Below, piece by piece: positions 6,112-42,748 of a stretch of DNA of 64,000 nucleotides. The notes beneath the pieces were generated by a model. It did no database searches and was not told the DNA's origin. It was given only the letters and a program-made list of their open reading frames with translations. The translations under genes were made by a program, and so were the position numbers. How positions within the stretch are numbered: the stretch's first letter is position 1; each line of letters opens with the position of its first letter. Source of the DNA: Nanobdellota archaeon (lineage in GTDB: Archaea > Nanobdellota > Nanobdellia > Pacearchaeales > GW2011-AR1); NCBI GenBank assembly GCA_038045425.1, contig JBBSYD010000032.1, positions 36,417 to 100,416 of the forward strand. Direction: 5' to 3'.

Positions 6112-6271
6112 TAATTACATACCCTCCGTAGCTCAATGGCAGAGCGCCCGGCTGTAGTTAATATAACTAGCACAGACTTTCCATATGGAAACAGGATGAA
6201 GTGCGAACAGAGCATTTTCGTTAGAAAATAGCAGAACCCGGGCTACCCAAGTTCGATTCTCGGCGGGGGGA
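6112..6271 (+). tRNA. tRNA-Tyr (anticodon GTA) with an 89-nt intron after position 37 (intron about 6148..6236)
   Basis: Acceptor ccctccg/cgggggg with C1-G72 (archaeal Tyr identity). U8A9, D-arm gctc-aatggca-gagc, anticodon arm cccgg-ctgtag[intron]c-ccggg, T-arm ccaag-ttcgatt-ctcgg (one mismatch), discriminator A. Confidence 0.7.
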
Positions 6272-32864: not shown

Positions 32865-32989
32865 ATAAACTTTTATTGAAACTGGCTTTGTCCGATAAGT
32901 AGGTTCTGTCCGAATAGTCAATAAAACTACCCTAGAGGACACAAGGGCGATTAAACCCTTATGAACCCGACTAGGCTACCCGAATATGA

Positions 32990-33193
32990 TTATTTTAGGC
33001 TCTGTAACAGATTTTTAAGATAAGTATATCTCTCAGAACGAGTATTCTTAATAGCTTCATATATACTTTTTGTGTAAGTCTTTCCTTCCAAATTATTATA
33101 GACATAAGTTTCTAATTTCTTCAATAATCTTATTTCTTTTTGTACACTTCTAGCTATTTTCATTATTTTCTTTTTAGCTTCCTTAGTCATCAT
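32990..33193 (-). CDS. small hypothetical protein (transposon cargo)
   Basis: 67-aa basic ORF. Confidence 0.3.
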   Translation of the reverse strand: MMTKEAKKKIMKIARSVQKEIRLLKKLETYVYNNLEGKTYTKSIYEAIKNTRSERYTYLKNLLQSLK

Positions 33194-33420
33194 ATAAAAT
33201 CAATTAGATTTAACTTTAAATTACCTTCCAACCTCTAGGAAGTGGTTAAATTAAAAAGTATATTTCTTACTCTAATAATGTTTATATAATTAGTATACTA
33301 ATTAACATAGGCAGTATGGTATGATGGGCGATATGCTTAATGCCCCCGAAAGGGATTCAACCGCCGAGGTTGCTGAAAGCTCAGACCCCATTAGAGCTGC
33401 CAAATTAGGATTTTTATAAT

Positions 33421-34965
33421 GTGGCAAGTTCAACATTAGGATTTAAGGTGGATGAAGAGAGATTAATAGTTTCTAACTTAAAAAAGTCATTTACTATTAT
33501 TTCAGAATATTCTAACCCAAAACAAAGAATTTTATCTAGACTGGAAATTAAAAAAGAAAGCAAAAAAGTTATTGTAAACTTCTACGCTACGGGCAAATGC
33601 TTGATTCAAGGTAGTGACGGAGAATTATTTGATTCCATTAAGAAGAGTATATTAGATGGTGGATTGGTCGAAATAAAAAATGAAAAACAACAAAAGTTTA
33701 TAGCAGAATTGAATGAAAATGATTTTTATAAAGAAAAAGAATTTATTGTTGGTTTTGACGAAGCAGGCATAGGAGAAACTATTGGTTCTGCAGTTTTCGC
33801 AGCAGTTATACTGCCTAGAGAAATTTTACATATATTTTCAGATTTAAGAAAAGATATTAAGTCTCTTTCTCCTTCTGAATTAAATTATTATTGTGAATTA
33901 ATAAAAAAGAAAGGCATTCGCTATGAGTATATAACTACTTCACCATATGAAGTCTGTAATTCAGGAATTACTAAAAATAGATTAATGGACAGAAAATATG
34001 TTGAATTAATAAGGAAGCTTGCACCGAATCTTAATAAAAATTATATTTTAATGTTAGATGATTATGGTGTAAGGGAAGATATAAGGGAATATTTGAAAAA
34101 CTTAGATAAACAAGGTATTACGTCTATATGCCGAGATAAACTAGACGAATATATAACTGCTTGTAAATTAGCTTCAATTATTGCAAGACATGTAAGATAT
34201 TCTGAAGTTCAAATGCTAGAGAAAAATAATCGTATTTTAATTGAAGGAAAAGAGATAAGTTTTGGAAAAGGAGGAAATGGAGAAGAAACCACTAACTGGC
34301 TTAAACAATTTAGGACTTTGTACCCGACACAAGACTTCCCAGATTTCATTAAAAAAGCATGGAGCAATGTGGTAGAAATAGAAAAGTCCATGCCTAGACA
34401 GGTAATTCCATTATCATTTACTTGCGATGGTTGTAAAAAGTCTTTAAAACGTATATTTGCATATCACACAAAAGATGAAGATAGCCTAAGATTCTATTGC
34501 TCTTTGTGTTATAAGCTATTAGAGAAAAACCTACTAAAAACAAGGGGGTTTCCATATATATTAGCTGATACAAATTCTCTAATAATCGGTACAATAAGCC
34601 ATGACCTTCGATGTTTAACATCTATTTTTGAAGGTTCGAAATTACTTATTCCCTATAAGATTATAGACGAAATCGATACAATAGGAAAAGGCAAGAAATT
34701 AGGAGCACATAAAGAATTGGAAAGATTGAAAGTTCTTGAAACAGAAGGAAAGATAAAACTTCATCATTGTGACTTTGAAGTCACCCACCCATTTGATGCA
34801 GATAAAAAGCTTTACGATTTAATAGCCAAAAATAATAGTTGTGCTCTTATTACTGCTGATAAAAATCTAGCTATTGCAGCTCAAACCAATGATTCTTTTG
34901 TTTTTCATCTTATAAATTATATCCCTGAATCTAAAATAGAATCTGATTCTACGAAATTGAATTAA
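33421..34965 (+). CDS. RNase HIII-like (TBP-like N-domain plus RNase H catalytic domain) fused to a zinc ribbon and a C-terminal PIN domain
   Basis: VIVNFYATGKCLIQGSD resembles the RNase HIII N-domain (ITAYKSGKVLFQG). GFDEAGIGETIGSAVFAAVIL, DIKSLS and CKLASIIARHVR parallel the RNase HII/HIII motifs (DEVG/DEAG, DSK, AASIIAR). CDGCKK...CSLC forms a zinc ribbon. The C-terminal PIN has acidic residues in LADTNSLI, IIDEID and ITADKNLA. Confidence 0.6.
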   Translation: MASSTLGFKVDEERLIVSNLKKSFTIISEYSNPKQRILSRLEIKKESKKVIVNFYATGKCLIQGSDGELFDSIKKSILDGGLVEIKNEKQQKFIAELNENDFYKEKEFIVGFDEAGIGETIGSAVFAAVILPREILHIFSDLRKDIKSLSPSELNYYCELIKKKGIRYEYITTSPYEVCNSGITKNRLMDRKYVELIRKLAPNLNKNYILMLDDYGVREDIREYLKNLDKQGITSICRDKLDEYITACKLASIIARHVRYSEVQMLEKNNRILIEGKEISFGKGGNGEETTNWLKQFRTLYPTQDFPDFIKKAWSNVVEIEKSMPRQVIPLSFTCDGCKKSLKRIFAYHTKDEDSLRFYCSLCYKLLEKNLLKTRGFPYILADTNSLIIGTISHDLRCLTSIFEGSKLLIPYKIIDEIDTIGKGKKLGAHKELERLKVLETEGKIKLHHCDFEVTHPFDADKKLYDLIAKNNSCALITADKNLAIAAQTNDSFVFHLINYIPESKIESDSTKLN

Positions 34966-34967
34966 TG

Positions 34968-37631
34968 TTATAAATTTGAGCTATAAGGTAAAGATTTTAT
35001 ATAATTCTCCATAAATTCCCAATCTGGATTACCTTTTTTGTCTTTTGGTAGTTTAATCTTCATTTTTTTCAGTTGAGAATTAACTATTGCTCTGCCATAG
35101 GAGAATTTATCTTTCATTTCAAAGTTGAATATTGTAATTAGGAACATAGCCACATCTTTTGTAATCTTATTGTCTTTTGTTCTTATAATATTAATCTTAT
35201 TTCCTGTGAAAAATGGTTCTTCTTGGTAAAATGCTCTAACTCCCTCTGCTCCGATTGTTATGCAATCCCCAATTTCAGGTATTTCCTCATCATGTAAAAT
35301 CTTACCAGCATAACCATTATTAAATGCACTACGAGTAATGTAATTAACTCCTCCCATAGAAAACTCTACGTTTACTTTATGAACAGGTGTTCCCAAAGTA
35401 ACATCAAAAATATCATTTACATTAAACTCTTTCCAGTTGTCGGTATTTATCTTTTTGTTTTCGTTCTTTTCAGAATAAATCTTATTCTCATTCAGAATCT
35501 CCATAAAAGTTAATTCGTCAATATTTTTGTCTAAGATATCAAGTTTTAATTTTATCTTGAATATAATGTAGTCTTTTATACTCTTTGTAAAAAGATTAGA
35601 TTCAAGATATGTATAATCTGTCTTGCTGTGTGCCTGAATAATCCACTCATCTCTTTGATTTATTTTAGTTTTAACGAGATGAAAACCATCACTAAATTTA
35701 TCTGGATTATTTAATTCCTCTAAAAGTTTCTTCCTTATATTTGCCCATTTATCCAAGGCGTCAGTTCTACCTCTATTTTTAGATAAAACCAAACCATCAT
35801 CTTCTAAATTATAAAAGACTATTTCTTTATTATTGTGCGGTTTATTTGTTTCAAAAACAGCTATTGCAGTGTGAGTTGTGGCGTTTGGTCTAAACAAGTC
35901 TTTTGGCATATTAATAACACATTTTAAGGTATGCTTTGATAAAATTCTCTCTCTGGTGTCCTCGTCTTGCATATAAGTTGAAAGAGGAGCAATAATCACA
36001 CCAAACCTACTAACTTTGTCTAATAAATTTTCTAAGAATTGGATTTCTTTTTTAGTTGGATTATCTTTATTATCTTCTCCCCCATAAGGCGGATTTATGA
36101 AACCTATTGTCGGAGATATTCCATCTTTTTTAAGATTACCTAAGATTTCATTTGCTTCTTTTGAAAATGAATCTACGTTGAATATCATGGATTTACCATC
36201 TCCTCTAAAAAGCATATTAGATATTGAAAGAGCATACATGGTAGAGCTTTTCTCAAATCCGATTAACTGGTGTTGTTTTATATTTTTAATTAATTCCGCT
36301 TTGTTTCTTATGTTTGATTGATTAATTTCTAAGATTATTTTATTCATAGCAGATATTAAAAATGCTCCAGTTCCACAGCACGTATCAAGTATTACATCAT
36401 TATTCTTTATTTCCACTAGTTCTGTAAATAGTTTAGTTATATGACTTGGTGTTAAAACTATTCCATTTTTCACATTGCTTATTCCTGCATATCTCAAAAA
36501 TTCTTCATAAAATTTACCTAAGATATCATAATTTGTTTCTTTAGAGAATAAGGGAATAACATTTTTATCCAATTCTTCTAAAATTTCTTTTAAGATGTCT
36601 GTATTGTTTAGGTCTTGGTCTGTCTTGATAAAGGATAGTTCATTTGTTAAAACTTCTATTTTGTCCTTTGGTATCTTCTCATCTTTTAATATTTGAGTTA
36701 TTGTAGTTGGAATATTATTTATTATAGTCTTAGGATTCCAACCAATATATCCATCTTTAAAGTCGTTCTTATCTCCTCTGGTAAATAAACAAATCATTAA
36801 ACCGCTAAGTAAAACAGGTCTTTTTTGAGAATCTAAAGAACGAAGTTTATTGTTTATCTTCTTTGAAGATTCAGATACTTCTCTAATCAATCTTTCCATA
36901 TCTACATTTTCAAAAAATGAGAGGTATTCTTCTTCGTTCAATATTTCTTTAGTTTCTATATCTTTTATCTCGTTCTTATTTATAATAAAAGTAGAAATAA
37001 GATGGCTATACAAATCAAGGATATTACCAGATACGGCTATCCCAACAATCTTCCAATTCTTCAAATACTTTCTAGTTGTTTCAGGTAAGCTACTAACATA
37101 AGTATCTGTAAAGAAAGACAGATAATGTTTTATTCCATCTATTGCATAATTTTCAGGGTCGTTTCCTTCTTTAGACTGATGTTGCTTAATTGTATCTTTA
37201 TTTTCAAGCAAAATTATTAATTTGTTTGCTTCATTGATATATAACAAATCTGGCTCTCCACGATTTCCAGTTTTTCTTTTACTTGCTTTATCTAAAATAG
37301 ATTGAATGACTTTATTATCTGTTTTTTTAATATCCCAAGAGTTCTTATATTTTTTATTATCTTTTATAAAATTATATAAAAATATATCTTTCTTCGCTTC
37401 ATTTTTTCTTTCGTTACTCATGTCTTTTCCTCCAAGAATTTCTCTATAAGCTTTTCCACTTTGTCCGATTTGTTTATTGAGTTTTCTTCGCAGAAGTCGT
37501 TGAATCTTTTGAGAGTTTCTGGAGCTAGAGTTACACTTAAATGCCCCTTTTTCACCTCTCCTCTCCTCATAGCTTAATGATAAGTTATTACTTTTTATAT
37601 CTTGCGTATCCATATTATTAATGTTACTCAT
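34968..37631 (-). CDS. Type IIG restriction-modification enzyme (single chain: PD-(D/E)xK endonuclease, gamma-class N6-adenine methyltransferase and target-recognition domain)
   Basis: N-terminal GEPDLLYI...LIILLENKD is a PD-ExK motif. VLDTCCGTGAFLISA is MTase motif I and GFINPPYGG is motif IV (NPPY). The C-terminal roughly 230 aa are HsdS-like TRD. Size and domain order resemble MmeI. Confidence 0.7.
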   Translation of the reverse strand: MSNINNMDTQDIKSNNLSLSYEERRGEKGAFKCNSSSRNSQKIQRLLRRKLNKQIGQSGKAYREILGGKDMSNERKNEAKKDIFLYNFIKDNKKYKNSWDIKKTDNKVIQSILDKASKRKTGNRGEPDLLYINEANKLIILLENKDTIKQHQSKEGNDPENYAIDGIKHYLSFFTDTYVSSLPETTRKYLKNWKIVGIAVSGNILDLYSHLISTFIINKNEIKDIETKEILNEEEYLSFFENVDMERLIREVSESSKKINNKLRSLDSQKRPVLLSGLMICLFTRGDKNDFKDGYIGWNPKTIINNIPTTITQILKDEKIPKDKIEVLTNELSFIKTDQDLNNTDILKEILEELDKNVIPLFSKETNYDILGKFYEEFLRYAGISNVKNGIVLTPSHITKLFTELVEIKNNDVILDTCCGTGAFLISAMNKIILEINQSNIRNKAELIKNIKQHQLIGFEKSSTMYALSISNMLFRGDGKSMIFNVDSFSKEANEILGNLKKDGISPTIGFINPPYGGEDNKDNPTKKEIQFLENLLDKVSRFGVIIAPLSTYMQDEDTRERILSKHTLKCVINMPKDLFRPNATTHTAIAVFETNKPHNNKEIVFYNLEDDGLVLSKNRGRTDALDKWANIRKKLLEELNNPDKFSDGFHLVKTKINQRDEWIIQAHSKTDYTYLESNLFTKSIKDYIIFKIKLKLDILDKNIDELTFMEILNENKIYSEKNENKKINTDNWKEFNVNDIFDVTLGTPVHKVNVEFSMGGVNYITRSAFNNGYAGKILHDEEIPEIGDCITIGAEGVRAFYQEEPFFTGNKINIIRTKDNKITKDVAMFLITIFNFEMKDKFSYGRAIVNSQLKKMKIKLPKDKKGNPDWEFMENYIKSLPYSSNL

Positions 37632-37654
37632 GTTATTTATAGTATTAATATTAT

Positions 37655-38887
37655 TTATATCTTTGCTTCCATCTCAACAATAAAGTCAGGTTTAATTCCT
37701 CTACAAAACATTTCCATAATTACACAGCAGATATTATGGCAAATTACTTTACATAAAACCTCATTTACTTGAGCGTTCCATTTCTTAGAACGAACAGAAT
37801 CGCCAAACTTAGATTTTATCATATACACCGAGGTCTCCGCGTTTGACCTCTGGTGATATGATTGTAAAAATTCCTCATTGTGTAAAGCAAAATAATGATA
37901 AAGTCTTTTCCAGATTCCACCTTTTCGACTTGGAGTAGAATTTATCTTAAATGGAATAAATGCCTTAGTTCCACTATTTTCTATTAACTCTAAATTATCC
38001 CTTGATAAGTAGGCTTTATCCGCACTTAATTCTTGCATATCAAAGAACTCTTTAGCTGTTTGATATAATTGTTTAAGCTGTGGGCAGTCATTATCAAATT
38101 CAGAAGTTATCTTAACGCTGGTAATTCCATTTGTAATTGTTCCAGTAATGAAATGACATTTAACCCATTTTCTTGAACTTATGGCTTTTCCATGCTTGAA
38201 TGAATACCATCTTTGAAAATTAGAAGTTCCAAATCCCGTGCTGTCTATGGCAAATTTCCTATCAATCTCTTTTAGAGGCAAGGCAGTGATTGTTACTAAT
38301 TGGCTAAGTAAATCGGTTAATTCTTCTTTATTGAAATAATCTGACATAGAACTTCTTGGTGTGATACTTTCTATGAAGTTACTTGATTTTGCCTGTTCCA
38401 TATCTGACGTGAATCTTCTACTTGAAAAAGTGGAATAAACTTTGAAAATCATAGAATAAATAGTATCTCTCAAAGAATTTTTAGGTTTACCAAAAGTATA
38501 AGGTCTCTCTTGTATTTTGCTTGTTAAGTCTGCTAGGAGCTTCATAAACAACTCTTTCTCTTTCGTTTGAGCTAGATTATAGTTATGCCAATCTTGAGCG
38601 TAGGTGACCTTCTTAGTAGCGGTTATAGTCACATTACCTTGCTTGTCTACTTCGTGAGTTACTATAAACTCAACTGCCCAAATATGTTTACACTTACATC
38701 CTCTCTCTTTATGGTCTTTGCAATTACATGAAGTATTATCTCCTCTGCTCTTAACAAAGTAAAATCCTGCTCCAGACTGGCTTGGAACTTTCCATCTACC
38801 TTTTTCATCTTGAACTATTCTTGAAGTCTGAGCTATTACTAAGCCTCTTTGTTTTCTTACTTCGATTGGATTATATTGTGTTTCCAT
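37655..38887 (-). CDS. DDE transposase (IS4/IS5-like DDE_Tnp_1) with N-terminal SWIM zinc finger
   Basis: CNCKDHKERGCKCKHIW is a SWIM finger (CxCx(n)CxH). The DDE candidates are AIDSTGF, LSADKAY and RSNAETSVYMIKSKFG. Confidence 0.7.
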   Translation of the reverse strand: METQYNPIEVRKQRGLVIAQTSRIVQDEKGRWKVPSQSGAGFYFVKSRGDNTSCNCKDHKERGCKCKHIWAVEFIVTHEVDKQGNVTITATKKVTYAQDWHNYNLAQTKEKELFMKLLADLTSKIQERPYTFGKPKNSLRDTIYSMIFKVYSTFSSRRFTSDMEQAKSSNFIESITPRSSMSDYFNKEELTDLLSQLVTITALPLKEIDRKFAIDSTGFGTSNFQRWYSFKHGKAISSRKWVKCHFITGTITNGITSVKITSEFDNDCPQLKQLYQTAKEFFDMQELSADKAYLSRDNLELIENSGTKAFIPFKINSTPSRKGGIWKRLYHYFALHNEEFLQSYHQRSNAETSVYMIKSKFGDSVRSKKWNAQVNEVLCKVICHNICCVIMEMFCRGIKPDFIVEMEAKI

Positions 38888-38999
38888 GTTATATTTAGAT
38901 ACCTAATCTATATAAATCTTTCGGTATCTAAAATCTTACTTGGAAGTAGATAAATTAGACACCTAAAAGTTTATAAATCGTAGATACCTAAAATAATTA

Positions 39000-39167
39000 A
39001 TGAAGTTGCAAAAGCAGGTGAGTCGAGTATACAAAGGAGAAGAATACGAGAAATTTTGGATAGTTATACCTTCTAAGCTTGTAAAACTACTTGAATGGAA
39101 GACTGGACAAGATTTAGAGGGCGATGTGAAAGATGGGAAGCTCATAGTTGAAAAGAAGAAAAAATAA
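39000..39167 (+). CDS. AbrB/MazE-like swapped-hairpin small protein (55 aa)
   Basis: VYKGEEYEKFWIVIPSKLVKLLEWKTGQDLEGDVKDGKLIVEK has an SpoVT/AbrB-like pattern. Below the ORF-track cutoff. Confidence 0.4.
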   Translation: MKLQKQVSRVYKGEEYEKFWIVIPSKLVKLLEWKTGQDLEGDVKDGKLIVEKKKK

Positions 39168-39257
39168 GGAGATAAAAATTTAGGTGATGAAAAATAAATA
39201 TTTATTCGGTTAATTCTTAATAAAAATATATTTAAACTGCTGTATCAATCAAATTAA

Positions 39258-39599
39258 ATGAAAGAAGTTGAATTAAGACAAATTATAAAAAATAGAATAA
39301 ATTTTAGAGAAGTAAATGCTAATGTAATGTATAATGGATTTGATATGTCTGGATATAATAATAGTGGTTTTTCTAATTTAGAGATATTAGCTAAGTTTCA
39401 AGATTTAATGAATTTAAATTGTGGAACTGAAAATAGGACTCCAAATCTTCACTTACCTATATTTTGGAAAGGTAGCGGACAGATTATCAAATTAGATAAT
39501 TCTGGAAAATTTGAAGTAATAGAAGAGCTTAATGGAGAAACAACGGAAGACATTATATTCAAAATACTTAAACTGCAAAATACTGCACTTCTTGATTAA
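39258..39599 (+). CDS. hypothetical protein; last gene inside the transposon
   Basis: 113-aa ORF ending 2 bp before the right subterminal repeat. Confidence 0.4.
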   Translation: MKEVELRQIIKNRINFREVNANVMYNGFDMSGYNNSGFSNLEILAKFQDLMNLNCGTENRTPNLHLPIFWKGSGQIIKLDNSGKFEVIEELNGETTEDIIFKILKLQNTALLD

Positions 39600-39720
39600 A
39601 TTTCTGTCCGATAAGTCTTACTTTTTAGCTACTATTCGGACAAAGCCATTGAAACTGCTAGATTTAAAAACCCTGAAAACAATAAGTAAATGTATAAATA
39701 ATTAGGTTTAACTTTTTATT

Positions 39721-41358
39721 ATGATGAATAAATTTAACAAAGGCAAAAGAGGATTTGAACATAAACGAGAGAGACGCGAGTTTAGTATGGATGACTCTCC
39801 TAGACAGGCTAGTGGTAAAGTTACAATAAAAGAGCTTGTTGAAAATCCAGCTATGGCTAAAAGTACAAATCAGATTACTGCTGTGATTAATAGTGTTACT
39901 CAAACTACTGGGCCTTCATTGTTCTCGGTAAGTGATGGAACTGGAACTTTAGTTGTGAAAGCATTTGAAGGAGCAGGAGTTAGAGCATATCCTAATATTG
40001 AAGAAGATGATTGTGTTGAGATTCTATTGACTGTTAAGGAATATCAGGGAATGTTGGAAGGGGATGCAATGAGAATGACTAAGTTAAGTCCTGAAGTTTC
40101 TGAAAAAGTTAAGAAAGCGATTTCCGATATGCAAAGGGCACAGGCACAGGCAAAAGAAATTCCATTTTTAATTAAGAGTAAGGTATTGGATAAATTGAAA
40201 GAAAGTTTTATGAAAGCTGCTACTGAAATTAGATTAGCCATATTTACCAATAGACCAATAATTGTTAGACATCATAATGATGCGGATGGATATTCTTCTG
40301 GATATTCAGTTGAAAGTGCAATATTGCCTTTGTTGATGAAGCAACATGGTGGTTCTACTAAAGCATTGAGAACACACTATAATAGAGCACCAAGTAATAC
40401 TCCATTTTATGACATTGAAGATTCAATTAAAGATTCTAGTCATTCTTTAACTGGACAGGCTAATTTTTCTGAGAAGATTCCATTGGTAGTAATCGTGGAT
40501 ACTGGAAGTTCAGAAGAAAGTTTATTGGGAATTCAACAGGGAAAGATTCATGGAACTGATTTTATTGTTGTTGACCATCACTTTTCTGAGAAAGATGTAA
40601 TAAGTAAAGAAGTACTTGTTCATATTAATCCATTTTTAGTTGGGGAAGATGGAGGAAAGTATTCTGCAGGAATGTTGTGTTCTGAACTTGCTAGATTCAT
40701 TAATCCTGAGGCTTCTGTTGATCATATTCCTGCACTTGCTGGACTTGCAGATATGATTGATAATCCTGAAATTCTTGAGCAGTATATGAAGATTGCTGAA
40801 AATAAGGGGTATAGCAAGCAGTTGATGCATGATATTTCTGCGGTTATTGATTTTGTTTCCACTAAGTTAAGATTTATGGAAGCAAGAGAATATGTGGGAG
40901 TTATGTTTGGAAATCCTATTGCACAGCAGAAGAAATTAGTTAGTTTGCTTGGACCGTATGTTAGAAATTTGGAAAATAAATCGTTGGAAATTGCTAAATC
41001 GGTAGTTAGAAAGGAAGATATTGGGGGAAAGGTTGTTCAGTTCTTGTATATTGAAGAATCATTCTCAAGAGGAGTTTATCCTAAACCTGGAAGAGCTAAT
41101 GGAATGTTGCATGATTTTACATGCAAGGAAGGAAATAAGAAAGTTATTAGCCTAGGAATATTGGGAGATGCAATAACTATGAGAGCAAGTGAAGAATCTA
41201 AGTTTTCAGTTCATGATTTAATTAAGCATTTGCATAAAAGTTTACCTGGAGCATTTGTAGAAGGTGGGGGACATCATCTTGCTGGAGCAATAAGATTTGT
41301 TCCGTCGCAGAGAGAGAATGTTTTGAATGCTATTAGAACTTTTGTTAAAGCTAATTAG
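39721..41358 (+). CDS. RecJ/GAN(Cdc45)-like DHH phosphoesterase with N-terminal OB fold
   Basis: OB-like N-terminus, then DHH motifs IIVRHHNDADGYSSG, VIVDTGSS and IVVDHH, and the DHHA1 GGGH motif. Confidence 0.7.
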   Translation: MMNKFNKGKRGFEHKRERREFSMDDSPRQASGKVTIKELVENPAMAKSTNQITAVINSVTQTTGPSLFSVSDGTGTLVVKAFEGAGVRAYPNIEEDDCVEILLTVKEYQGMLEGDAMRMTKLSPEVSEKVKKAISDMQRAQAQAKEIPFLIKSKVLDKLKESFMKAATEIRLAIFTNRPIIVRHHNDADGYSSGYSVESAILPLLMKQHGGSTKALRTHYNRAPSNTPFYDIEDSIKDSSHSLTGQANFSEKIPLVVIVDTGSSEESLLGIQQGKIHGTDFIVVDHHFSEKDVISKEVLVHINPFLVGEDGGKYSAGMLCSELARFINPEASVDHIPALAGLADMIDNPEILEQYMKIAENKGYSKQLMHDISAVIDFVSTKLRFMEAREYVGVMFGNPIAQQKKLVSLLGPYVRNLENKSLEIAKSVVRKEDIGGKVVQFLYIEESFSRGVYPKPGRANGMLHDFTCKEGNKKVISLGILGDAITMRASEESKFSVHDLIKHLHKSLPGAFVEGGGHHLAGAIRFVPSQRENVLNAIRTFVKAN

Positions 41359-42633: not shown

Positions 42634-42748
42634 GCGCTAGTAGTTTAGTGGTAAAACGGCTCGTTGCCAACTCTAGGAGTCTAAAGAACTACAATTGTTT
42701 AGACTAGGTAAAAACGAGCAGTCTCGAGTCCGATTCTCGACTTGCGCA
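42634..42748 (+). tRNA. tRNA-Gly (anticodon GCC) with an intron of about 44 nt at or next to the anticodon loop
   Basis: Acceptor gcgctag/cttgcgc (one U-U mismatch), D-arm gttt-agtggta-aaac, anticodon stem gctcg/cgagc separated by about 44 nt, loop ttgccaa, T-arm tcgag-tccgatt-ctcga, discriminator A. Confidence 0.6.

Follow-up and report, generated by a model that had tools for sequence, protein, structure and literature searches.

Unit transposons and transporter insertion sequences (tIS), as compiled in ISfinder and TnCentral (10.1101/2021.05.26.445724), have one transposase and one pair of terminal inverted repeats (TIRs) around passenger genes, bordered by a short target site duplication (TSD). 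Variable, defence-rich cargo and controlled target sites are known from the Tn7-like transposons (Benler et al. 2021, PMC8649781). Finally, Furuta, Abe and Kobayashi (2010, PMC2853133) described restriction-modification (RM) units, in which imperfect inverted repeats and a short duplication surround RM genes; the transposon-like RM unit of Xanthomonas oryzae has an 8-bp TSD (PMC2853133). Here we describe a 6.8-kb element that resembles each of these systems in part. It lies in a stretch of 64,000 nucleotides of archaeal DNA, referred to throughout as the window (assembly GCA_038045425.1, contig JBBSYD010000032.1, positions 36,417 to 100,416). The host is a DPANN archaeon (Nanoarchaeota) from the 0.1-µm filter fraction of Hainich groundwater, whose proteins carry the NCBI label 'Nanoarchaeota archaeon'. 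We consider it highly probable that window positions 32884-39647 are a unit (non-composite) DNA transposon with swappable RM or defence cargo, belonging to a family that inserts just upstream of the B recognition element (BRE) and TATA box of core promoters.

The element has the layout that defines a unit transposon or tIS: a single transposase gene and a single TIR pair enclose the passengers, and a TSD surrounds the whole. Unlike the described tIS, most of which come from bacteria and have resistance or regulatory genes as passengers, the elements reported here carry mainly RM and defence genes, apparently have no cargo-free form and lie next to promoters. Tn7-like transposons differ in having TnsABC(D/E), a 5-bp TSD, glmS or tRNA attachment sites and a far larger size. 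Here a single IS5-type transposase is present, no TnsA, TnsB or TnsC domain was matched in any open reading frame (ORF) of the element by Pfam, NCBIfam or PADLOC profiles, and the TSD is 9 bp long, not 5. The RM units of Furuta et al. are isolated, bacterial and mostly without a cognate transposase, whereas the present elements share one transposase family and conserved ends, and their RM systems are of types IIG, IIG plus S subunit, II and III.

The ends and backbone genes of the element, together with the adjoining host sequence, are the following (window coordinates).

32875..32883, no strand: left TSD copy, ATTGAAACT, 10 bp 3' of the stop codon of an AlaE-like host gene
32884..32920, plus strand: 'End B', terminal repeat ggctttgtccgataagtagg (32884-32903) followed by a second, direct copy, ttctgtccgaatagtc
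37655..38887, minus strand: transposase, 410 aa, with an N-terminal SWIM-type motif and an IS4/IS5-type DDE domain
39000..39167, plus strand: AbrB/MazE-fold protein, 55 aa, divergent from the transposase gene (Pfam MazE_antitoxin, 1e-5)
39602..39647, minus strand: 'End A', terminal repeat gctactattcggacaaagcc (39628-39647) and an inverted inner copy (39602-39617), together an imperfect palindrome
39648..39656, no strand: right TSD copy, ATTGAAACT, the same 9 bp as on the left
39657..39723, plus strand: host promoter region, intact, gctagaTTTAAAaaccct; a BRE/TATA-like box starts 6 nt past the TSD, and the ATG of a RecJ/DHH-like gene is at 39721

The element proper (32884-39647) measures 6,764 bp and contains at least five genes besides the transposase. 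Its TIR arms, at 32884-32903 and 39628-39647, are imperfect and agree at 17 of 20 positions, while the 9 bp immediately outside them are identical. Arms and direct repeats alike lie where a preliminary description of this DNA, drawn from the letters and ORF translations, had placed them. The two ends are the sole matches in 64 kb to the 19-mer TIR pattern GGCTTTGTCCGAWWAGTAG with up to three mismatches, against an expectation of 0.02, and none of 100 shuffled sequences gave two or more matches. The 9-mer ATTGAAACT is not rare when taken alone (three copies in the window, 2.1 expected); the chance of nine identical bases beside both TIRs is ~1.2e-5 at the local base composition. Chance is therefore an unlikely source of the TIR/TSD arrangement, given these flanks and the 0.02 TIR matches expected.

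The ends are built from a 13-nt repeat word, CTGTCCGAWWAGT. The subterminal word TGTCCGAWWAGT has five matches in the window, compared with 0.73 expected, so that the extra copies pointed out in the preliminary description are real. They do not, however, share one orientation: the left inner copy (32907-32918) runs in the same direction as the terminal copy, whereas the right one (39605-39616) is inverted with respect to its terminal copy, which produces the imperfect palindrome (z = -2.6).

To place the element among its relatives, 115 transposase-centred loci were fetched from genome and metagenome contigs; they carry labels of the type L001. In a first pass, the same TIR word as in the window was required on both sides of the gene, together with an adjacent 9-bp repeat in which one TSD mismatch was allowed. 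This pass gave 31 complete elements, all with zero TSD mismatches. A second, de novo pass accepted every pair of inverted 16-mers that was bordered by an exact 9-bp repeat, and it added elements with variant TIRs, in which (G/A)GCTTTG is followed by TGTAAAAAG, CACAAATAG, CCTCAAAAC or TTTAAATAA. After removal of same-site duplicates, 46 distinct complete elements remained, making 47 with that of the window. They range from 2,203 to 8,209 bp in length (median 4,993). The chance expectation of such a TIR and TSD pair is negligible per pair. A bare insertion sequence (IS) of 1.3-1.5 kb was not found among the 47, and even the smallest (2,203 bp) has a winged-helix gene. The proposal that this is a cargo-carrying transposon is thus borne out by a single transposase, TIRs at the outer ends only, a TSD and 46 relatives; the search for other copies that had been suggested found the same TIR/TSD pairing at these further sites, as elements of one family. 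It had also been remarked that a transposase family never generating 9-bp duplications would speak against the proposal, and every complete relative has such a duplication.

Comparisons between members define the boundaries of the mobile unit. L064 and L073 share 87% identity along the entire unit, cargo included, from the outermost base of one TIR to that of the other, with unrelated flanks and different TSDs, and the pair L032 and L115 behaves in the same way. Pairs of this kind, whose members occupy different sites and share homology that ends exactly at the TIRs, serve as substitute evidence where an empty site is lacking. Other pairs share the backbone and differ in what it carries. The 1.6-kb backbones of L025 and L026 are 95% identical, with an ABC transporter and an O-methyltransferase in one, and a Type III RM system and DUF2779 in the other. 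L066 shares 85% identity with L064 in the backbone and 98% in the far end, and their cargo is unrelated. The window element and its closest relatives (L010, L051 and L053) have only three blocks in common: ~50 bp at the right end, the AbrB-like gene plus transposase (73-76% identity over 1.2-1.5 kb), and ~40 bp at the left end. Therefore, the AbrB-like gene counts as backbone, and the entire interval from the transposase gene to the left end as cargo. The 55-aa AbrB-like protein is 82% identical to its counterpart in L010 and lies within the block conserved with that element. The label given to it earlier stands (MazE/AbrB, 1e-5), with the refinement that the gene belongs to the backbone and not to the cargo.

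The plan of the ends is also common to the family. End A, proximal to the transposase, has a terminal repeat and, ~13 nt inward, an inverted copy, while End B, at the far end, has two or three direct copies; the window element fits this plan exactly. Its last ~40 bp of End B are 83-89% identical to those of L010, L051 and L053, and its first ~50 bp of End A 83-87%. The end repeats are putative transposase-binding sites, and the asymmetry may distinguish the two ends during synapsis. In the elements checked, a small DNA-binding gene (AbrB, zinc-ribbon, ribbon-helix-helix (RHH) or winged-helix) stands beside the transposase, and several of these genes head the cargo operon. The RM gene of L010 (element positions 1793-1796) and of L053 (1542-1545) overlaps the transposase stop in an ATGA, preceded by GAGGTGA; transposase and Type IIG RM enzyme appear to be translationally coupled in one operon in these two elements.

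Two further observations were made on the ends of family members. At 11168-11253 of L021, an 86-bp TIR pair of the family type (GGCTTTGTCCGAATAGTG... / GGCTTGGTCCGATAAGTG...) with near-identical flanking repeats looks like a non-autonomous derivative in the style of a miniature inverted-repeat transposable element. The contigs of L010, L022, L036, L052 and L118 start 55-60 bp outside a TIR, approximately one assembler k-mer. This suggests that the assembly graph branches at the element ends, as is expected for insertion polymorphism or repeated ends.

The transposase carries a SWIM-type CxCx9CxH motif (C54, C56, C66 and H68) ahead of a catalytic triad of D215, D290 and E351, the last of which lies inside a Y-x2-R-x3-E-x6-K signature (Y344, R347, K358). 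The DDE residues, the signature and the CxC...CxH motif are invariant across 34 aligned transposases. Pfam DDE_Tnp_1 (PF01609) matches the protein at 6.7e-16, and with the intact DDE triad and the motif this agrees with its first description as a SWIM-finger IS4/IS5-like transposase. Several homologs have a precomputed Pfam SWIM match (PF04434). There are more than 2,500 homologs, almost all in DPANN metagenome bins, the nearest being 75% identical; a scan of IMG/VR returned no relatives in viruses. The AlphaFold2 (AF2) model of the transposase was poor, with a predicted local distance difference test score (pLDDT) of 62 and values below 50 for the SWIM region as well as for some of the catalytic core, and its fold was not usable.

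Searches of plasmids with tblastn gave ~25% identity to 'IS5 family' transposases of Klebsiella, one of which, when read directly, is IS903-like (L046). IS903 makes 9-bp TSDs and prefers palindromic targets of the form WTTYA-N9-TRAAW (PMC2577343). The question of TSD length raised in the preliminary description is answered by this nearest characterised relative. The inverted repeat of IS903, GGCTTTGTTGAATAAATC, has the same first eight bases as the window TIR, GGCTTTGTCCGATAAGTAG, and the GGCTTTGT-type terminus recurs as ggctttgttgaataaatc in the IS903 repeat (L046), ggctttgtccgataagtag in the window and GGCTTTGTTTAAATAA in the L033 variant. The family thus resembles IS903 in its DDE_Tnp_1 transposase with the Y-x2-R-x3-E-x6-K signature, in termini that begin with GGCTTTGT, in its 9-bp TSD, and in the T-rich/A-rich palindromic flank preference. 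It differs from IS903 (~1.06 kb, a single gene, a 307-aa transposase) by a 410-aa transposase of ~25% identity with an additional N-terminal SWIM-type region, by several subterminal repeats in asymmetric ends, by a small DNA-binding gene in the backbone and by its archaeal hosts. Moreover, every complete member found bears cargo (2.2-8.2 kb), and the transposase scores below the NCBIfam IS5 cutoff. Of the features of the IS903 group, the catalytic domain, the TIR and the TSD are therefore present, whereas the curated score and the simple IS of ~1-1.5 kb are not.

Another point of comparison is provided by the eukaryotic Mutator-like elements (MULEs), which have a 9-bp TSD and a SWIM zinc finger, capture genes (Pack-MULEs) and insert near promoters and 5' ends. 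Their transposases belong to the IS256/Transposase_mut lineage, with the SWIM finger C-terminal to the catalytic core. The present family shares with them the 9-bp TSD, the SWIM motif, host-gene cargo and near-promoter insertion, and departs from them in its IS5-type DDE_Tnp_1 domain and the N-terminal position of the motif. The window transposase was matched by DDE_Tnp_1 and IS5-type profiles only and not by a Transposase_mut/MULE domain. On this comparison, we take the resemblance to be convergent.

When the reconstructed empty sites were aligned by transposase strand, the TSD was found to be followed by G-A-A-A, two variable bases and T-T-T-A-W-A. Judged by its sequence, this flank looks like an archaeal BRE followed by a TATA box, pointing away from the element. 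A strict TTTAWA lies 5-7 nt past the TSD, on one side and never on both, in 25 of the 47 elements, compared with 1.6% of random host positions (p = 1.5e-32) and 3.0% of positions outside ORFs of at least 80 aa (p = 5e-26). A looser TATA-like pattern is present in 34/47 (8.2% of positions outside ORFs; p = 6e-27). The target sites also have a symmetric T-rich/GAAA component reminiscent of the IS903 preference. This component does not explain the TATA signal, because the enrichment persists when an RAAA flank is given, with a strict TATA in 14 of 29 sites against 2.4% (p = 1e-15). In 27 of the 38 flanks that bear the motif, a correctly oriented ORF of at least 60 aa begins no more than 200 nt downstream, most often 35-56 nt past the TSD, a spacing that suits leaderless or short-leader archaeal transcripts. 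The duplications themselves lie wholly outside ORFs of at least 80 aa in 32 of the 47 elements.

The window element obeys this pattern, ATTGAAACT being followed by gctagaTTTAAAaaccct with the box 6 nt after the TSD. The box, TTTAAAAACCCT (39663-39674), recurs at 7947-7958 of L047 at approximately the same distance upstream of the orthologous RecJ/DHH-like gene, whose product is 66% identical to that of the window lineage (both Nanoarchaeota). It is likely the native promoter of the RecJ/DHH-like gene. By inserting just upstream of the BRE/TATA core promoter, the element leaves both the host gene and its promoter intact.

A fixed relation to promoters is also seen in Ty3, a long terminal repeat retroelement with an integrase, for which tethering to transcription factors at RNA polymerase III promoters via TFIIIB has been proven experimentally. 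As with Ty3, the distance to a promoter element bound by TBP/TFB-family proteins is short and fixed, and the gene stays functional. Unlike Ty3, the link of the present family to TBP and TFB is a hypothesis based on insertion-site sequences.

The genes carried between the backbone and End B, and the remaining ORFs of the window element, are listed below.

32990..33193, minus strand: 67-aa ORF with no family match, called as a gene on the source contigs; no homolog in other elements
33421..34965, plus strand: nuclease fusion, 514 aa, cargo; RNase HIII-type N-terminal domain, RNase HII/HIII catalytic domain, 4-Cys zinc ribbon and PIN domain
34968..37421, minus strand: Type IIG RM enzyme, cargo; the ORF extends to 37631 (887 aa), with nuclease, methyltransferase and specificity in one chain
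37418..37570, minus strand: 50-aa ORF with an RHH-like pattern (GHLSVTLAPETLKRFNDFCEE...); its TGA stop overlaps the RM start (ATGA, 37421-37418)
39258..39599, plus strand: 113-aa ORF with no family match, 3' of the AbrB-like gene; not conserved in relatives

The RM enzyme comprises an N-terminal PD...ExK-like nuclease, a gamma-class N6-adenine methyltransferase and one C-terminal specificity domain. It is matched by PADLOC REase_MTase_IIG (2.4e-51, residues 83-695), Pfam N6_Mtase (3e-27) and Specificity_II (7e-19, residues 733-880). By domain content it is a Type IIG enzyme with predicted cleavage and methylation, and the PADLOC match together with its own specificity domain supports the single-chain enzyme of the preliminary description. 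Its alignment with the RM-S fusion of L043 spans 841 columns at 33% identity, and an EPD...ENK motif is common to both. Because this alignment begins at M71, the true start is probably M71 at 37421, giving a protein of ~817 aa, and the 887-aa ORF would be ~70 residues too long. The 50-aa ORF upstream found no support in Pfam, NCBIfam or PDB sequences; its sequence pattern and the ATGA overlap make it a possible controller protein of the RM gene. The 67-aa ORF may be cargo or spurious. No Rfam matches, tRNAs or terminator-like sites were found inside the element, and matches to a sigma-70-type promoter, a consensus inapplicable to an archaeon, were at the level of shuffled sequence.

The nuclease fusion matches Pfam RNase_HII (1.8e-14) and, below cutoff, PIN_4 (5.6e-4) and TIGR00716 rnhC (3.8e-12). 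Its AF2 model (pLDDT 83) has Bst RNase HIII as top PDB match (352 columns, 2.7e-13), followed by archaeal RNase HII and the PIN domains 3i8o (5.5e-5), 3ix7 and 1o4w. The model combines an RNase HII-type fold with a predicted TBP-like N-terminal substrate-binding domain, the combination that defines an RNase HIII. The RNase HIII-like/PIN fusion named earlier is therefore upheld by the RNase_HII match and the Bst RNase HIII model match, with a weak PIN_4 score. Invariant in its few homologs are D113, E114, D213, C335, C338, C360, C363, D383, E417 and D480, among them the catalytic residues of the two nuclease domains; D383, E417 and D480 are the invariant acidic residues of the PIN domain. The fusion is rare, with ten homologs in a word-indexed search. 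One of them (L130, 8001-9578) adjoins a DpnI-like restriction endonuclease; another (L131, 5578-7170) adjoins a DUF559 (Vsr-like) endonuclease and a tyrosine integrase; a third (L133, 8001-9605) lies directly after a Type I hsdMSR operon and DUF2779, and before an RNase HI gene. Together with the window this makes four RM or mobile-element contexts, which by guilt by association suggests that the fusion is a candidate accessory defence nuclease.

Across the family, DNA methyltransferases or RM systems are found among the cargo of 32 of the 47 elements. Most of this RM cargo is Type IIG, with or without a separate S subunit, and one system is Type III. Several are Type II pairs, in which C5, N4/N6 or Dam-like methyltransferases are combined with BglII-like, HNH or unassigned partners. 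Other cargo comprises NurA-HerA-DruA, GmrSD-HNH with an EcoRI-type methylase, PIN with DUF5680, AAA/STAND-like ATPases, a ClpP-like protease, an AAA ATPase with a subtilase and one ABC transporter. The NurA-HerA-DruA set, a defence-type module without RM, is carried by both L064 (5383-11956) and L073 (4535-10947). The AAA ATPase and subtilase are carried by L042 (4569-12691), a complete 8.1-kb member on the closed chromosome of a cultured methanogen, Methanimicrococcus hongohii Hf6 (NZ_CP131059.1, at about 889,824-897,946). This element has three direct subterminal repeats as well as inverted ones; its TSD, CCAAAATCT, is followed by a TATA-like box.

From these features, the following picture may be drawn. 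The element would move by cut-and-paste DDE transposition with 9-bp staggered target cuts. Its backbone consists of two unlike, repeat-built ends with a putative transposase-binding word of ~13 nt, a small DNA-binding gene and an IS903-like transposase with a SWIM-type region. A cargo slot between the transposase gene and End B here holds the Type IIG RM gene, probably preceded by the controller-like protein, and the nuclease fusion. In the large family, mostly of DPANN archaea, this slot usually holds RM or defence genes, and cargo is swapped between near-identical backbones. RM cargo would defend the host and at the same time stabilise the element by post-segregational killing.

The host locus itself was examined for an uninterrupted target. 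Without the insert, the AlaE-like stop (10 bp before) and the RecJ/DHH-like ATG (64 bp after) would bound an intergenic spacer of 83 bp. The neighbours of the element in the window are archaeal core genes, namely those for a thermosome, MCM, a DEAD-box helicase and the RecJ/DHH-like protein. The uninterrupted target would contain ...cttttATTGAAACTgctagattt..., and the reconstructed empty site reads ...GTTAGATAAACTTTTATTGAAACTGCTAGATTTAAAAACC.... The empty-site check put forward in the preliminary description came out negative: contigs with identical flanking proteins are all occupied, and the nearest RecJ/DHH-like orthologs are only 66-71% identical at the protein level and lie in neighbourhoods that are not syntenic (the 145-aa gene upstream in L047 is not an AlaE homolog). 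The sole thing recovered from the orthologous loci was the conserved promoter box directly after the TSD. Elsewhere in the window, two Rfam tRNA matches of 150 and 115 nt (6122-6271 and 42634-42748) were not called by ARAGORN; they are probably intron-containing archaeal tRNA genes.

Several points weigh against the interpretation of the locus as a transposon of a promoter-seeking family. Exact-protein look-ups of the transposase and the AlaE-like flank protein returned occupied sites only, in Hainich samples, and no second copy of the element exists within the 64-kb window. Current or recent activity of this copy is unproven, because neither an empty site nor a second copy was found, and the insert is present on every contig with identical flanks. 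The NCBIfam IS5_2 profile (NF033579) matches the transposase at 1.3e-34 with 120 bits, against a cutoff of 140, over residues 202-386 only. The window transposase itself remains below Pfam significance for SWIM, so that the SWIM assignment is based on the motif and on relatives. Complete elements were chosen by the 9-bp TSD requirement, which makes the 9-bp length in 47/47 partly a matter of construction; 63 loci yielded no complete element, many of them being cut by contig ends. Ten cargo calls in the third set are local phmmer matches to cargo already annotated. The BRE/TATA boxes were identified by their sequence and spacing and not by mapping of transcription starts. Selection may contribute to the promoter pattern, as the insertions on which it is based have survived in compact genomes.

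These points bear differently on the possible readings of the locus. The element could be genuine and yet an immobile relic, an old insertion that became fixed and is now an ordinary chromosomal RM locus. We hold this to be unlikely, though it would account for a single copy without an empty site on every contig from several Hainich samples, for a nearest transposase relative of 75% identity, and for TIR arms that differ at 3 of 20 positions. On the other hand, the TSD is still perfect, the backbone ORFs are intact, the transposase retains all family-invariant residues, and imperfect TIRs with the same TA/AT end difference are the norm in the family. A pairing of the AbrB-like protein with the PIN fusion as a VapBC-type toxin-antitoxin, which would make this pair the stabilising module instead of the RM system, is very improbable. 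AbrB/MazE-fold antitoxins commonly pair with PIN toxins, and the element encodes both proteins. However, 4 kb separates the two genes, which lie towards opposite ends of the element and belong to separate transcription units, AbrB is kept with the transposase in L010, which is without the PIN fusion, and fusion homologs elsewhere have no adjacent AbrB gene. This reading was rejected on the gene arrangement and the conservation pattern. It is hardly credible that no 6.8-kb unit exists at all, and that an IS came to lie beside a resident RM locus with outer repeats from separate events. RM genes do often lie near transposase genes without forming a unit with them (PMC2853133), but here the single transposase gene has no TIR-like word beside it, the two outer TIRs are the only matches in 64 kb, a perfect TSD surrounds 6.8 kb, the layout recurs at 46 other sites and the homology between copies stops at the outer TIRs. 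A composite transposon was likewise rejected, there being no internal TIRs.

Whether the promoter adjacency reflects targeting has to be weighed separately. Survival could produce it if the transposase had a mere IS903-like TTY-N9-RAA preference and other insertions were lost from gene-dense genomes. The flank preference of IS903, the symmetric T-rich/GAAA component of the family, the compactness of DPANN genomes and the 32 TSDs wholly outside ORFs are all consistent with this. Nevertheless, the enrichment holds against intergenic-only controls (53% vs 3.0%) and with the RAAA flank given (48% vs 2.4%). The spacing to the TATA box is fixed within 3 nt, whereas selection alone would allow other upstream positions or positions between convergent genes. 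We judge survival without targeting to be a rather unlikely cause. Because the phasing to the TATA-like box is so tight, we favour the view that the transposase chooses the promoter-adjacent position, and that the bias would therefore reflect target choice and not survival only.

No description of the family, of its RM cargo bias or of its promoter-adjacent insertion was found in the literature, including surveys of archaeal IS, defence and RM systems, within a coverage that was incomplete and excluded ISfinder. The family goes unmentioned in surveys that cover the IS of archaea (PMC13343696), mobile elements in thaumarchaea (PMC6563490) and the defence systems of archaea and of aquifers (PMC12988326, PMC12259885). 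It is apparently undescribed, and it is marked by the SWIM addition to an IS903-like transposase, the asymmetric multi-repeat ends, the RM/defence slot and the promoter-adjacent insertion. The combination that the preliminary description did not recognise is accordingly absent from the literature covered, although it is no one-off and belongs to a large family. We put forward, as a tentative proposal that may well not hold in full, that this undescribed archaeal family is a major vehicle of RM and defence genes in DPANN archaea and some methanogens, and that it reads the upstream edge of the BRE/TATA directly, or docks on bent DNA bound by TBP and TFB, to reach a 'safe harbour'. If the docking version is true, the family would be an archaeal DNA-transposon counterpart of Ty3-type, factor-guided targeting.

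DPANN archaea have few defence systems in surveys (PMC12988326, PMC12259885). For their tiny genomes, a single-transposase element with a swappable slot would be a concrete vehicle for the gain and exchange of defence genes, and two thirds of the sampled copies hold RM systems of varying type and specificity. Promoter-adjacent insertion would allow a transposon to be maintained among closely packed genes without disrupting them, and the pattern offers a handle on the contact between a transposase and the archaeal basal transcription apparatus. Experiments are feasible, as a complete copy is present in the cultured Methanimicrococcus hongohii Hf6, and a compact, cargo-tolerant, promoter-seeking archaeal transposase could serve as a genetic tool. 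The main value of the window element is as an entry point to this family.

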